This document shows positions 37,775 through 62,823 of a DNA stretch of 64,000 nt, piece by piece. Under the pieces are notes generated by a model, which was given only the letters and a program-made list of their open reading frames with translations, did no database searches and was not told the DNA's origin. How positions within the stretch are numbered: the stretch's first letter is position 1; every line of letters begins with the position of its first letter. Source of the DNA: an uncultured bacterium (lineage in GTDB: Bacteria; Patescibacteriota; Minisyncoccia; Phycocordibacterales; PALSA-1337); the NCBI GenBank assembly GCA_903839725.1, contig CAIMDG010000002.1, positions 241,117-305,116 on the forward strand, written 5' to 3'. The translations under genes were made by a program, and so were the position numbers.

Positions 37775-38305
37775 TTACTCCGCATTCGTATATACATTTT
37801 GAACCTCATCATTTTCTTCAAGTTCTTCAACGAGTTTGGTGAGCACTTCGATGTCCGCATCCTCGAGTGGCATAGTAGATGTTGCTTCCCAGACATTATT
37901 CTTCTTATGAAAGGCCCATGAAGCACTACCAGGGGAGGCGAGTTCGAAACCATTCTTGCTCAGGATGTGTTTCACTTCTTGAGCAGCCTTGTTTCTGTTA
38001 TCGGTAAGAGCATCGATAAGAATAGCTACACCGCCAGGACCATAACTCTCATACACGATTGATTCCATGTCTGCAGAATTGTCAGTTGTTGCTTTCTTGA
38101 CCGCACGATCGATAGTATCGTTAGGCATATTTTCTGCACGAGCCTTTTCGATAGCTGCTGCAAGACCTGGTGAAGAGAGAACACCTTTTGCTTTCTTTGC
38201 TTCAACGGTAATGAGGCGAACGAGCTTACCAAAATTTTTACTCTTCTGAGCATCATTCTTGGCTTTGATATGCTTTATTTTTGAATATTTGTTATGGCCT
38301 GACAT
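37775..38305 (-). CDS. yebC: YebC/PmpR-family DNA-binding transcriptional regulator
   Basis: MSGHNKYSKIKHIKAKNDAQKSKNFGKL is the YebC N-terminal consensus. Confidence 0.9.
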   Translation of the reverse strand: MSGHNKYSKIKHIKAKNDAQKSKNFGKLVRLITVEAKKAKGVLSSPGLAAAIEKARAENMPNDTIDRAVKKATTDNSADMESIVYESYGPGGVAILIDALTDNRNKAAQEVKHILSKNGFELASPGSASWAFHKKNNVWEATSTMPLEDADIEVLTKLVEELEENDEVQNVYTNAE

Positions 38306-38306
38306 A

Positions 38307-38780
38307 AGGATAGTTTACAGTGAAAAGTGCAAAATGCAAAGTTATGAAATGACTATTTATTTTTTAATGATTTTACGGTTGAACCGAGGATTTTTGATAT
38401 TTCCTGAGCTTCTTTCAATAGTAAAGTTGCAGATTCTTTACTTTTTGGCTCAGTATCTTTAAGGAGAGCAATCCAATACCTACTTTCATTCGAAGACTTA
38501 AGGGCATGATTAATAAAATGAGAAAAATCTTTTCTGGTAGAGCAAGCTTGGGCCTCTACAATATTTGCTCCAATACTGGTTGCACTACGGATTAACTGTT
38601 TTGAAATTACTTCAGTAACAAAATCTTTACTAGAGATAGATCTTATTAGTTTAATTACAGAGATAGAAAAACCGTATGTACGCTTTATTAAGGCTTCTTT
38701 ATATGTCTTATTATCCATACTTAAAACTATATCATTAACAACTTAAACTTTGCATTTTGCACTATAAACTTTTCACTATA
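38307..38780. mobile_element. Cassette of a four-helix-bundle (23S rRNA IVS) protein gene bounded by ~35-bp imperfect inverted repeats, inserted between ruvB and yebC
   Basis: Left inverted repeat at 38307-38343 (ggatagtttacagtgaaaagtgcaaaatgcaaagtt). The reverse complement of the right repeat at 38746-38780 is ...agtgaaaagtttatagtgcaaaatgcaaagtt. The right repeat overlaps the ruvB stop, and the left repeat abuts the yebC start. Confidence 0.55.
38353..38718 (-). CDS. Four-helix-bundle protein (23S rRNA intervening-sequence protein family, TIGR02436-like)
   Basis: 121 aa; the pattern SIGANIVEAQACSTRKDFSHFINHALKSSNESRYWIALL is typical of this family. Confidence 0.7.
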   Translation of the reverse strand: MDNKTYKEALIKRTYGFSISVIKLIRSISSKDFVTEVISKQLIRSATSIGANIVEAQACSTRKDFSHFINHALKSSNESRYWIALLKDTEPKSKESATLLLKEAQEISKILGSTVKSLKNK

Positions 38781-39786
38781 ATAATTTCCCCGACCCCTTC
38801 ACTCCAAGATGATTGTACGCTTTATCAGTTGCGATTCTTCCACGAGGTGTTCTTTCGAGAAGTCCGAGTTGGATCAAATATGGTTCATATACTTCCTCGA
38901 TTGTTGCTTGTTCTTCAGAGAGAGCAGCTGCGACCGTATTCAAGCCAACAGGCCCACCACCAAATTTATTAATGATGACATTGAGGATTTCGCGGTCAGC
39001 GCTAGTGAGACCGATCTTGTCGACACCGAGCATAGATAAAGCCTTCTCAACAACTTCCTTGGTGAGTGTTGTTTTGTTGATCTGAGCATAATCACGACAA
39101 CGTTTGAGATGATAGTTGGCAGTACGTGGCGTGAATCGGGAACGAATAGCAATTTCTTTCACTGCATCAGGGTGTATTTCTATGTCGAGAATCTTCGCAG
39201 ACCTCTTGATGATCTCTGCAATTTCGTTATCCGAATAAAATTCAAGCTTGAATACTCCTCCCGAGAATCGGGAACGAAGTGGTGCGGATATCATAGCTAC
39301 ACGAGTCGTTGCTGCTATCAATGTGAAAGCAGGAAGGTCAAGCTGAATCGTTCGTGCCGAAGGACCTTTGCCGATAATGATATCAAGCATGCCTGATTCC
39401 ATGGCAGGGTAGAGAACTTCCTCGATAGCTTTGTTGAGACGATGAATTTCATCGATGAATAGAATATCTCCTGCAGATAAGTTGGTGAGTATTGATGCAA
39501 GATCTCCGATTTTCAAAATCGCAGGTCCAGAAGTTACTTTCATCTGTGTACCCGTTTCTTTTGCGATGAGGTGGGCGAGTGTGGTTTTTCCGAGACCTGG
39601 AGGGCCATAGAAAAGGATGTGCTCAGGTGGATGATTGCGCTCTTTTGCTGCGGTGAGGAGAATATGGAGGTTGTCTTTGATGTTCTTTTGCCCAATGTAT
39701 TCAGCCCACTTCGCAGGACGTAGGGTTTGGTCCAAAAAACCAACGTCTTTCTCATCTATAGGGTTTTGTGGGGAAGTACTTGACAT
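38776..39786 (-). CDS. ruvB: Holliday junction branch-migration helicase RuvB
   Basis: Walker A FYGPPGLGKTTLA, AAA+ motifs, C-terminal winged helix. Confidence 0.9.
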   Translation of the reverse strand: MSSTSPQNPIDEKDVGFLDQTLRPAKWAEYIGQKNIKDNLHILLTAAKERNHPPEHILFYGPPGLGKTTLAHLIAKETGTQMKVTSGPAILKIGDLASILTNLSAGDILFIDEIHRLNKAIEEVLYPAMESGMLDIIIGKGPSARTIQLDLPAFTLIAATTRVAMISAPLRSRFSGGVFKLEFYSDNEIAEIIKRSAKILDIEIHPDAVKEIAIRSRFTPRTANYHLKRCRDYAQINKTTLTKEVVEKALSMLGVDKIGLTSADREILNVIINKFGGGPVGLNTVAAALSEEQATIEEVYEPYLIQLGLLERTPRGRIATDKAYNHLGVKGSGKLL

Positions 39787-54168: not shown

Positions 54169-54432
54169 ATGCCTATTACCTCATCAGCCAAGAAAGCTCT
54201 CCGCGCCTCAAAGAAGAAGCGTGTTTTTAATATTCGTCGTAGTAATGCTATCGAGAGAGAAATGAAGGATTTTCGTCGTTTGATCGCCGCAAAGAAGGTT
54301 GCTGATGCAACAAAGCTCGTTCCTGCTATTTATCAAGCTCTTGATAAGGCAGTAAAGACCAATCTCATCAAAGCCAACACTTCATCACGTACCAAATCTC
54401 GCGTGATGGCAGCACTCAAGCGTGCAGCATAA
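54169..54432 (+). CDS. rpsT: 30S ribosomal protein S20
   Basis: MPITSSAKKALRASKKKRVFNIRR matches the S20 N-terminus. Start placed at MPIT; the ORF track starts at 54145. Confidence 0.8.
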   Translation: MPITSSAKKALRASKKKRVFNIRRSNAIEREMKDFRRLIAAKKVADATKLVPAIYQALDKAVKTNLIKANTSSRTKSRVMAALKRAA

Positions 54433-54437
54433 GGATT

Positions 54438-54519
54438 TAGTTTACAGTTGTAAGTTTACAATGAAAAGTTGTGGCACATGTGCAACAACTTTTCATTTTG
54501 CATTTTTCACTGTAAACTA
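54438..54519. repeat. Gene-less ~80-bp imperfect palindrome whose outer arms (tagtttacagt / actgtaaacta) match the inverted-repeat ends of the four-helix-bundle cassette at 38307-38780
   Basis: Left arm ttagtttacagttgtaagtttacaatgaaaagttgtggcacatg, right arm catgtgcaacaacttttcattttgcatttttcactgtaaactag. The shared motif ataaggat(t)agtttacag occurs at both loci. Confidence 0.5.
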
Positions 54520-54527
54520 GTTTAATT

Positions 54528-54599
54528 GCCCTCGTCGTTCAATGGATAGGACGCAAGATTGCGGATCTTGCAATGTAGGTTCGATTCCTACCGGGGGCA
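54528..54599 (+). tRNA. tRNA-Arg (anticodon GCG by hand fold; check with tRNAscan)
   Basis: Acceptor GCCCTCG/CGGGGGC (one G.U), anticodon stem CAAGA/TCTTG, loop TTGCGGA, T-loop TTCGATT. Homologous to the tRNA-Arg at 60224. Confidence 0.7.
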
Positions 54600-54650
54600 C
54601 AACAGGGGAAAGTTAAAAGTCTAAAGAAAAAAAGGTATAATCTACATACC

Positions 54651-62146: not shown

Positions 62147-62247
62147 ATGGGTGTGGGGACACTATAGCTGAATGTGTGTACTTTTTCAATCTTTTAAAGT
62201 TATTACCAAAACTTTTCACTTTTCACTTTTAACTGTAAACTTGAATC

Positions 62248-62823
62248 ATGTTATATACCCGCAAAGGTGACGACGGTACAACGAGTGCTTTCAATTCCAA
62301 GAAAGGTCAGCGTATGTCCAAAAGTTCATGCCAGACAGAGTCCCTCGGAGCACTCGATGAACTCAACTCATTCCTCGGTTTACTCAAAGTGAAGTCAGTA
62401 GATATTTCATGGGGCCTACCTACGCAGGCAGGCGTGAATGGAAAAACACTCTCATATATAGTTGGTTGGACTCAAGATTGTTTGTTTACTATTCAAGCCG
62501 AAGTTGCTGGAGCGGGGAAGACTATTACTGCCGAAAAAATAACAGAGATCGAAATGATGGTGGATAGTGCGGAAAAAGAATTACCACCGATCACTACTTT
62601 TTTTATTTCAGGAGGAACAGAAATTGCAGCACTGTGTGACATTTCTCGTACACTTGCACGTAAGGCAGAGCGTCGTGTTGTCGCTGCTGTCGAAGAAAAA
62701 GAGATTATCGTAAGTCCAGAAACACTCGCATTCCTCAATCGACTTTCTTCGCTATTCTATGTTCTCGCTCGACTTATGAACCATAAATCTGGTATAAAGG
62801 AGGTATCGCCCAGTTACCACTAG
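62248..62823 (+). CDS. PduO-type ATP:cob(I)alamin adenosyltransferase-family protein
   Basis: MLYTRKGDDGTTSAFNSKKGQRMSKSS ... LDELNSFLGL matches the PduO/MMAB N-terminal signature. Confidence 0.65.
   Translation: MLYTRKGDDGTTSAFNSKKGQRMSKSSCQTESLGALDELNSFLGLLKVKSVDISWGLPTQAGVNGKTLSYIVGWTQDCLFTIQAEVAGAGKTITAEKITEIEMMVDSAEKELPPITTFFISGGTEIAALCDISRTLARKAERRVVAAVEEKEIIVSPETLAFLNRLSSLFYVLARLMNHKSGIKEVSPSYH

Follow-up and report, generated by a model that had tools for sequence, protein, structure and literature searches.

The DNA analysed here, a 64,000-nt stretch of contig CAIMDG010000002.1 from an uncultured Patescibacteria genome (hereafter the window), carries a small gene cassette between ruvB and yebC. 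The cassette gene lies on the minus strand (38353-38718) and encodes a 121-aa four-helix-bundle (4HB) protein, which profile matches place in the 23S_rRNA_IVP family (Pfam PF05635, TIGR02436). It is preceded by ruvB (38776-39786, minus; RuvB_N, E 5e-70) and followed by a short yebC homologue (37775-38305, minus; ATG at 38303-38305), beyond which a DUF4116 gene and then ruvC are encoded on the same strand. The closest source-named homologues of the window proteins are from Patescibacteria or Paceibacterota. The 4HB gene is bracketed by two inverted arms of 43 nt each (38301-38343 and 38746-38788), which are 402 nt apart, 77% complementary, and share the perfect 18-nt core AGTGCAAAATGCAAAGTT. 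An earlier note on this DNA had described the 4HB gene as flanked by inverted repeats in this position, and this is confirmed; its view of the repeats as termini holds in that the inverted arms are real, but they are arrays of 7-nt units and not ordinary terminal repeats.

Both arms have a 7-nt periodicity. The ruvB-proximal arm (38746-38788, minus), upstream of the 4HB gene, is built of A-rich units (TAGTGAA, AAGTTTA, TAGTGCA, AAATGCA, AAGTT..) and contains the ruvB stop codon (38776-38778). The array in the yebC-proximal arm (38311-38343, minus), downstream of the gene, consists of the units AACTTTG, CATTTTG, CACTTTT, CACTGTA, and AACTA and stops 6 nt short of the yebC ATG. The ruvB-proximal arm is an imperfect complement of this array; Tandem Repeats Finder (TRF) assigned it a period of 14 (38760-38788), and it has an nhmmer motif match on the plus strand (38743-38771). 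As a control, all 65 window genes were examined for a flanking inverted repeat with z > 5, and the only one that has it is the 4HB gene itself.

The 4HB protein scores well above the cut-offs of both families, with 76.7 bits against PF05635 (cut-off 33.8, E 1.9e-21) and 86.5 bits against TIGR02436 (cut-off 24, E 1.3e-24). The family profile A1 is also matched by PDB 2RLD, a five-chain entry for an uncharacterised protein (E 1.8e-25). The conserved motif of the 4HB family is GxxRxxxSxxxNxxE (PMC3936711); R44, S48, N52, and E55 are invariant in 30 homologues, and the first motif position is Q41 here, not G. The PF05635/TIGR02436 family is large, comprising 13,752 clusters at 50% identity with E <= 1e-3. 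Its genes have been noted between cas genes (PMC3936711), and intervening-sequence protein open reading frames (ORFs) occur in insertions of Patescibacteria 16S and 23S rRNA genes, as reported in a 2024 study that calls the family functionally uncharacterised (PMC11270868). Avd, a protein of diversity-generating retroelements, resembles the 4HB domain family (PMC10053308).

Loci with homologous 4HB genes were collected by three routes: exact look-ups, one metagenome scan (80 loci, 44-64% protein identity), and a plasmid search. The upstream flank was compared with the reverse complement of the downstream flank, with 30 shuffles per locus. In 50 of the 65 metagenome loci with full flanks, the flanking inverted repeat beats every shuffle, mostly with z values of 5-20. 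A slightly altered cut-off gave an inverted repeat at 62 of 72 distinct loci, and at 70 of the 72 a 7-periodic array flanks the gene on one side or both. TRF detected a period-7 array in 127 of 142 flanks, and the lag-7 autocorrelation of the arms is 0.53-0.55, compared with 0.27 in control intergenic regions. On the gene strand, the upstream arm is A-rich and the downstream arm T-rich. Most of the loci have protein-coding ORFs close by on both sides; in 40 of 51 loci the neighbours point the same way as the 4HB gene, and the gap to either neighbour is ~50-60 nt. Rfam identified no rRNA in the window, nor in the 20 related loci whose gaps to a neighbour gene are largest, and a known RNA family was rejected as an identity for the arms, with no Rfam match at either window locus, in these 20 loci, or in the Nostoc plasmid segments L153-L155.

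The same arrangement occurs in cultured organisms. Inverted heptamer arrays are clear at three of five plasmid loci, which score 49-63 against shuffle maxima of 18-25. The plasmids of Dolichospermum and Nostoc punctiforme have largely perfect inverted heptamers, (TAATTCG)n/(CGAATTA)n and (CAATTCG)4/(TTGCGAA)4, and the (GATTAGT)n arrays of Bernardetia are recognisable and degenerate, more so downstream. The inverted repeat of Chlorohelix is weaker (score 25, shuffle maximum 19), and the Treponema plasmid locus has direct arrays in place of inverted ones. On plasmid pNFSY06 (239 kb) of Nostoc flagelliforme, all five annotated 4HB genes lie between inverted arrays, and the heptamer differs from paralog to paralog. 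Inverted heptad arrays are thus the rule around 4HB genes, both in metagenome loci of the Patescibacteria type and among cultured members of the Cyanobacteriota, Bacteroidota, and Chloroflexota, which answers the earlier note's question of whether 4HB genes elsewhere carry such termini: they do at 62 of 72 distinct loci, with heptamers that are lineage-specific.

Proteins that share a heptamer are each other's closest relatives across genera. The two proteins with CAATTCG arrays are 92% identical and the two with TAATTCG arrays 85%, and identity across the types is 73-78%. Each 4HB protein lineage retains its own heptamer. Tandem heptamers adjacent to start codons and without a known binding partner have been reported in other settings, namely TAACTGA in Beggiatoaceae, Cyanobacteria, and Bacteroidetes (PMC4679880) and heptamer repeats near start codons of Nostoc 7120, for which no binding partner was identified (bioRxiv 10.1101/2022.06.06.494920). 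Neither study mentions 4HB genes or the arrangement of arrays as inverted pairs, and we found no prior description of the association between 4HB genes and heptad arrays in the open-access literature, subscription journals being outside the scope. Since protein lineage and heptamer are paired, the 4HB protein is a candidate partner of the heptad arrays. The inheritance of gene and arrays as one unit explains why they co-vary, without any binding.

pNFSY06 carries 77 period-7 arrays, many of which are inverted pairs 70-180 nt apart that enclose no 4HB gene and reuse the heptamers of the paralogs. Five such pairs (97316-97533, 155753-155960, 85854-86071, 163239-163425, and 200908-201092; L154, L156, and L157) enclose a conserved core of ~130 nt with a possible mini-ORF of 22-35 aa that has a shared ..AWG.. 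motif, as seen by eye. The pair at 155753-155960 (L156) matches no Rfam family, and an E-value scan gave chance matches only. The plasmids of Dolichospermum (L148) and Chlorohelix (L151), from unrelated phyla, both have the 4HB cassette between helicase-related and DNA methyltransferase genes, a setting that resembles a restriction or defence operon and echoes the 4HB genes reported between cas genes.

Six pairs of related cassettes lie in surroundings that are unrelated in every case, and for five of them nothing homologous was found outside the arrays. Paralog 3 of N. flagelliforme and the N. punctiforme cassette are 85% identical over 464 nt, which run from outer array end to outer array end, and their 1.4-kb flanks are unrelated by blastn and tblastx. 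The pattern is the same for the cassettes of Dolichospermum and N. flagelliforme paralog 4, where the match is bounded by the arrays and the flanks are unrelated, and for three further pairs (L076/L101, L073/L087, and L077/L082), in which homology is restricted to the gene and ~40-90 nt on either side. Members of the sixth pair share 80% nucleotide identity over the 429 nt of gene and arms; nucleotide homology is limited to the cassette, and according to Pfam the neighbours are different housekeeping genes, RsmI-like and methionyl-tRNA synthetase genes in L095 and LigT and RecA genes in L142. As no homology was found past the arrays in five pairs and the neighbours differ in the sixth, we conclude that the gene changes place together with its arrays over evolutionary time. 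By this comparison, the 4HB gene with its inverted arms is a discrete relocating unit across the family. The closest relatives of the window 4HB gene also occupy more than one position, as they lie in cassettes at ruvB/yebC (L056) or scpA/scpB (L053 and L057); in another genome (L049), the scpA/scpB slot holds a gene-less pair of arrays.

At the ruvB/yebC locus itself, the cassette has a longer history. All contigs with an identical 4HB protein share the same context. A more distant relative (L056) has the cassette in the same slot, with repeats, in a contiguous 73% alignment through ruvB, the 4HB gene, and yebC; amino acid identities to the window are 88% for RuvB, 91% for YebC, and 66% for the 4HB protein. 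The earlier note had named the same gene in the same position without repeat similarity as the observation that would speak for an ancient resident gene, and L056 does not provide it, since the repeats are there. Closer relatives (L007/L008; RuvB 98%, YebC 100%) have in this slot a MazG-like gene and 350 nt of non-coding DNA, with no motif before yebC. Because the cassette is shared with the more distant relative and replaced in the closer ones, it is old here, and the slot turns over. The cassette at this locus is an old resident, and nothing points to a recent insertion. The comparison of junctions suggested in the earlier note thus revealed a variable slot but no uninterrupted site: a clean empty ruvB/yebC site was not found, and the closest relative (L007/L008) carries a different insert. 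Nor is a target-site duplication visible at the ruvB-yebC junction. The proposal that the intervening-sequence (IVS) protein gene travels as an inverted-repeat-bounded unit stands for the unit, which recurs in six pairs of unrelated surroundings, but not for any recent movement at this locus. In L007/L008 (5258-6000), the start of the MazG-like gene overlaps the ruvB stop codon, and the DUF4116 gene is replaced by a gene of 306 aa on the opposite strand. Concerted evolution of the arms was also considered and set aside, as the arms of the window and L056 are 70-77% alignable, which leaves the comparison uninformative.

The window contains two further loci with the same heptads. Between the rpsT stop codon (54430-54432) and a tRNA-Arg gene (54528-54600) lies a gene-less palindrome (54438-54519, no strand) with arms of 41 nt that are 80% complementary and have no spacer. 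The cassette array (38311-38343, plus) and the right arm of the palindrome (54487-54519, minus) are identical at 31 of 33 bases, with two mismatches; shuffles gave no such match, and none is expected. The relationship suspected in the earlier note is therefore closer than first described. The palindrome is predicted to form an RNA hairpin of -33.4 kcal/mol (z -5.9). The search for further copies of the repeat also found a third, solo array (62207-62242, plus), composed of ACTTTTC x3.4 followed by AACTGTAAACT; 6 nt separate its end from the ATG (62248) of a gene of the PduO-type cob(I)alamin adenosyltransferase family.

Relatives of the window carry regulatory DNA in the position of the palindrome. 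In L145 and L146 (S20 protein 89% and 85% identical), the rpsT/tRNA-Arg slot has an ordinary terminator with a GC stem and T-tract and then an ordinary promoter, and in L144 (S20 97%) it has a homologous promoter with only a 10-bp hairpin. As relatives carry a terminator and a promoter there, the palindrome occupies a terminator-plus-promoter slot. It may derive from the cassette, have arisen in place, or be a landing site. The anatomy recurs in other genomes: an inverted arm begins right after the upstream stop codon in L046 (rpsC/rplP), L044 (secY/adk), L049 (scpA/scpB), and L053 (scpB/ftsW), and a direct arm ends 3-7 nt before the downstream ATG in L046, L044, and L049. Gene-less relatives of the cassette, of which the earlier note had seen one, are thus found more widely, with gene-less inverted arrays of the same units accompanying cassettes in L049, L053, L044, L046, and the Nostoc plasmid.

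The T-rich arm is promoter-like in its layout. Shine-Dalgarno sequences are almost wholly absent from the ~65 window genes, and in most of them the ATG follows a TGnTATAAT-like box at a distance of 6-9 nt, so that leaderless mRNAs seem to be the norm for this Patescibacteria genome. A putative extended -10 box, TGaTATAGT (38726-38734, minus), precedes the ATG of the 4HB gene itself by 7 nt. In the yebC-proximal arm, a -35-like TTTGCA (38335-38340, minus) is separated by a 17-nt spacer from a -10-like TAAACT (38312-38317, minus), which leaves 6 nt to the yebC ATG. Both elements fit a sigma-70-type leaderless promoter, for which a TAnnnT hexamer 6-9 nt ahead of the start codon and a -35-like element 16-18 nt further upstream were required. 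The solo copy has the same spacing of TTTGCA, 17 nt, TAAACT, 6 nt, and ATG, and in the promoter-like right arm of the palindrome (54487-54519, plus) TAAACT (54513-54518) ends 9 nt before tRNA-Arg. The T-rich arm of Patescibacteria terminates in TGTAAACT, as a rule 6 nt upstream of an ATG or 9-14 nt upstream of a tRNA gene, a spacing that matches promoters of leaderless mRNAs. The fixed short distance to tRNA genes as well as start codons argues for transcription initiation and against a translational signal. The T-rich arm is probably a promoter for a leaderless yebC mRNA, judged by its consensus elements and their spacing.

A scan of species-representative genomes (one per species) with the motif AACTTTKCAYT-N(8-16)-ACTGTAAACT gave 34 matches, nearly all 32 nt long and most of them in Saccharibacteria, Paceibacterota, Parcubacteria, and related genomes of several Patescibacteria classes. 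The exact motif sequence of the window with its flank is in none of the 34. An ATG-initiated ORF begins exactly 6 nt downstream in 12 of 27 motif matches and within 3-9 nt in 17 of 27. Among the genes that follow the motif are dnaE (four times), dnaX, ftsZ, adk, rplP, scpB, xth, and thrS, and one match lies 14 nt before a tRNA-Leu gene. Because no 4HB gene was found near these matches, the T-rich array functions, or persists, without an adjacent 4HB gene. Several of the genes behind the motif act in repair (dnaE, a recG-like gene, xth, and yebC-ruvC). An SOS/LexA box, a palindrome that would lie upstream of recA, lexA, and repair genes, seems an unlikely identity for the motif, which is a direct 7-nt array and not a LexA-type palindrome, and which is also followed by housekeeping genes (rplP, adk, thrS, and ftsZ) and tRNA genes.

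Related heptads were seen outside Patescibacteria. Two metagenome-assembled genomes of the Firmicute Ruminiclostridium (L032 and L038) have the same AACTTTG, CACTGTA, and AACTGTA heptads, arranged in gene-less inverted modules with internal GC-rich hairpins (L032, 5380-5860, in tandem; L038, 2250-2500, 5380-5720, and 6800-7200), and in L038 a Shine-Dalgarno sequence and then an ATG come after one of these modules. In CAIMKX01 (bin-0381; L019, L022, L030, L041, and L042), two other repeats are nested with the heptad pairs, a second palindromic family (ggattcccgccttcgcgggaatgac) and a conserved palindromic spacer, gtgaatagtt...aactattcac. Elsewhere in the window, a type III hammerhead ribozyme (1543-1598, minus; Rfam RF00008, 50.5 bits, above the gathering score) lies ~32 nt upstream of the ATG of a gene for an S-adenosylmethionine-dependent methyltransferase (756-1511, minus).

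The inverted arms can also be read at the level of RNA. In the predicted fold of 38296-38795 (minus), the arms pair across 400 nt in both the minimum-free-energy and the centroid structure (z -2.95). Mismatches in the arm pairing of 53 loci comprise 123 G-U and 72 A-C in the sense strand (p = 3e-4); G-U exceeds A-C in 29 loci and A-C exceeds G-U in 10. Selection acting on an RNA stem in the sense of the gene would produce such an excess, and strand-biased mutation could be a further source of it. By analogy with the rRNA intervening sequence in which this gene family is found, the paired arms in read-through RNA would probably be a processing site of the RNase III type. An intrinsic terminator was rejected as the function of the arms, which cannot act in this way 400 nt apart; a terminator scan found none in the cassette region.

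Taken as a whole, these observations are best explained by a widespread discrete unit in which a 4HB gene lies between inverted 7-nt arrays and is co-oriented with flanking housekeeping genes, a reading to which we assign a probability of roughly 60%. Self-sufficiency would explain why the cassette is tolerated in the ruvB-yebC-ruvC neighbourhood, as its gene appears to have a TGaTATAGT box of its own. The yebC-proximal array would end in a -35/-10 promoter that starts a leaderless yebC mRNA. The same type of array would on its own drive tRNA-Arg, in a folded-back form whose hairpin takes the place of the rpsT terminator, and the solo array may drive the gene at 62248. In read-through RNA, the arrays would pair into a long stem resembling that of the 23S rRNA intervening sequence, which may be processed in the manner of RNase III. 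The 4HB protein, finally, may recognise its own heptad arrays.

A number of observations weigh against this reading. No target-site duplication was seen at the junctions inspected by eye, which were both window loci and the Nostoc cassettes with perfect arrays; no recombinase or transposase was found in association with the cassette, and no transposase is adjacent. There is no near-identical second copy, the nearest non-self homologue being 65-68% identical. The arrays are direct and not inverted in two loci, including Treponema (L152), and their length varies. Avd is a basic pentamer that binds nucleic acids, and a correspondence of five heptads per array with a pentamer was rejected as a general rule; it fits Nostoc (median 4.3 units) and not the metagenome loci (median 6.6, with a broad spread). 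A simple sigma-70 scan called no promoter at the T-rich-arm sites; the promoter reading is one of consensus and spacing, with which the array-to-ATG spacing in L057 does not fit, and none of the 34 motif matches in other genomes has a 4HB gene nearby. At 1.7-fold, the G-U excess is moderate, and part of it could stem from strand-biased mutation; the orthologous arms of the window and L056 are still 70-77% alignable, with no clear compensatory covariation.

The form of the cassette invites comparison with a classical DNA transposon and its miniature inverted-repeat transposable element (MITE), in which the arms would be terminal inverted repeats served by a transposase in trans, the insertion would be recent, and the palindrome at 54438-54519 would be a non-autonomous derivative. 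The inverted arms do bracket the 4HB gene exactly, from stop codon to start codon, the gene-less relative matches one arm at 31 of 33 bases, the ruvB/yebC slot differs between close relatives, and related cassettes occupy unrelated contexts with homology ending at the repeat ends. A transposon/MITE pair is nevertheless unlikely, because the window neighbourhood shows neither a target-site duplication nor a transposase, the nearest homologue is only 68% identical, and the cassette is syntenic with that of L056 at a divergence equal to its flanks. Furthermore, the arms vary widely in sequence between loci and are tandem 7-nt arrays with no conserved terminal motif, and in different Patescibacteria classes the motif occurs by itself at a constant distance from many start codons. 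The promoter-like anatomy of the T-rich arm and its conservation upstream of dnaE and other genes would suit an ordinary resident gene whose repeats are the promoter and terminator signals of the lineage, a yebC promoter and its inverted hairpin copy that belong to a shared promoter class, with nothing travelling at all. The terminator and promoter in the rpsT/tRNA-Arg slot of relatives and the vertical inheritance of the cassette in L056 agree with that. We consider it very unlikely all the same, given that flanking inverted repeats are specific to 4HB genes (62 of 72 4HB loci against one of 65 window genes) and that cyanobacteria and Bacteroidota have the same architecture with quite different heptamers that are not promoter-like. 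Six related pairs in unrelated contexts, with no homology found beyond the arrays in five of them, also speak against a gene that stays in place, and arms 400 nt apart cannot form an intrinsic terminator, of which the scan found none.

Alternatively, mobility may be secondary to regulation, with a 4HB protein that binds heptad arrays in trans, regulates itself through the two sites on either side of its gene, and controls yebC, tRNA-Arg, the gene at 62248, dnaE, and others. The co-variation of protein lineage and heptamer across genera is what such a regulator and its operators would show, as is the presence, on one plasmid, of paralogs with individual heptamers that reappear at further sites. 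The heptamers near start codons in Nostoc and Beggiatoaceae lack an identified partner (bioRxiv 10.1101/2022.06.06.494920; PMC4679880), and the related Avd resembles the 4HB domain family (PMC10053308). This reading rests on sequence, and the same co-variation follows from co-inheritance as one unit without binding; the array lengths are variable, and other Patescibacteria have no 4HB gene near the motif matches. We therefore regard a regulator with its operators as improbable, and prefer the discrete unit of 4HB gene and inverted arrays. A bolder extension of the discrete unit, which we put forward tentatively and would not bet on, is that TIGR02436 proteins are the missing sequence-specific partners of heptamer arrays. 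Cognate pairs of protein and array, along with their gene-less derivatives, might then form an unrecognised class of small mobile and regulatory modules that colonise operon spacers and rRNA genes in many phyla, which would explain the orphan heptamers of cyanobacteria, Beggiatoaceae, Bacteroidota, and Patescibacteria.

The 4HB family is familiar chiefly from the ORF in the 23S rRNA intervening sequence, and packaging between inverted 7-nt arrays would extend this picture. The rRNA intervening sequence, the 4HB genes among cas genes (PMC3936711), and the cassettes described here become readable as a single type of element. The 4HB protein would be a concrete candidate binder for the puzzling start-codon heptamers of Nostoc and Beggiatoaceae, and in organisms with leaderless mRNAs, such as Patescibacteria, a repeat element may supply promoters to essential genes, including dnaE, yebC, and tRNA genes.

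The cassette shares features with several known systems. Ralph and McClelland in 1993 reportedly described a 23S rRNA intervening sequence carrying a conserved ORF in Leptospira and others. Like that element, the cassette encodes a PF05635 protein, has a gene bracketed by inverted repeats able (here by prediction) to pair in the host transcript, and is a co-oriented insertion in a transcribed region. It differs in that it lies between protein-coding genes and that its arms are tandem 7-nt arrays, one of which doubles as a putative promoter; membership in the rRNA intervening sequences is ruled out, as Rfam shows no rRNA gene to be involved in the window or 20 related loci. The 4HB protein is related in fold and family to Avd of diversity-generating retroelements (PMC10053308); the cassette differs from these, its neighbours being RuvB and YebC, with no reverse transcriptase, template repeat, or variable repeat adjoining. 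Integron cassettes, which combine an ORF with attC, are likewise small single-gene units with an imperfect palindrome as boundary and varied contexts. They differ from the 4HB cassette, which has no integrase, cassette array, or attC consensus and instead has two flanking arrays and solitary copies in housekeeping operons.

Correia elements and the repetitive extragenic palindromic sequences and bacterial interspersed mosaic elements (REP/BIME) are short inverted-repeat elements between co-directional genes, and Correia elements are described as having outward promoters and as folding, in read-through RNA, into hairpins that RNase III can cleave. In this the gene-less palindrome at 54438-54519 resembles the Correia elements of Neisseria and REP/BIME. 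These elements, however, are species-specific and have target-site duplications or dedicated transposases, and they are not heptad arrays; unlike them, the window motif is common to Patescibacteria classes and is also present in a Ruminiclostridium metagenome-assembled genome. The orphan tandem heptamers, alongside which the cyanobacterial STRR (short tandemly repeated repetitive) sequences are listed, are the remaining comparison. As reported (PMC4679880; bioRxiv 10.1101/2022.06.06.494920), they are 7-nt arrays a few nucleotides from start codons or promoters, and in this they resemble the arrays described here; the phyla in which they occur are also rich in 4HB genes. They differ in having been described without 4HB genes, a link that is drawn here from sequence only.

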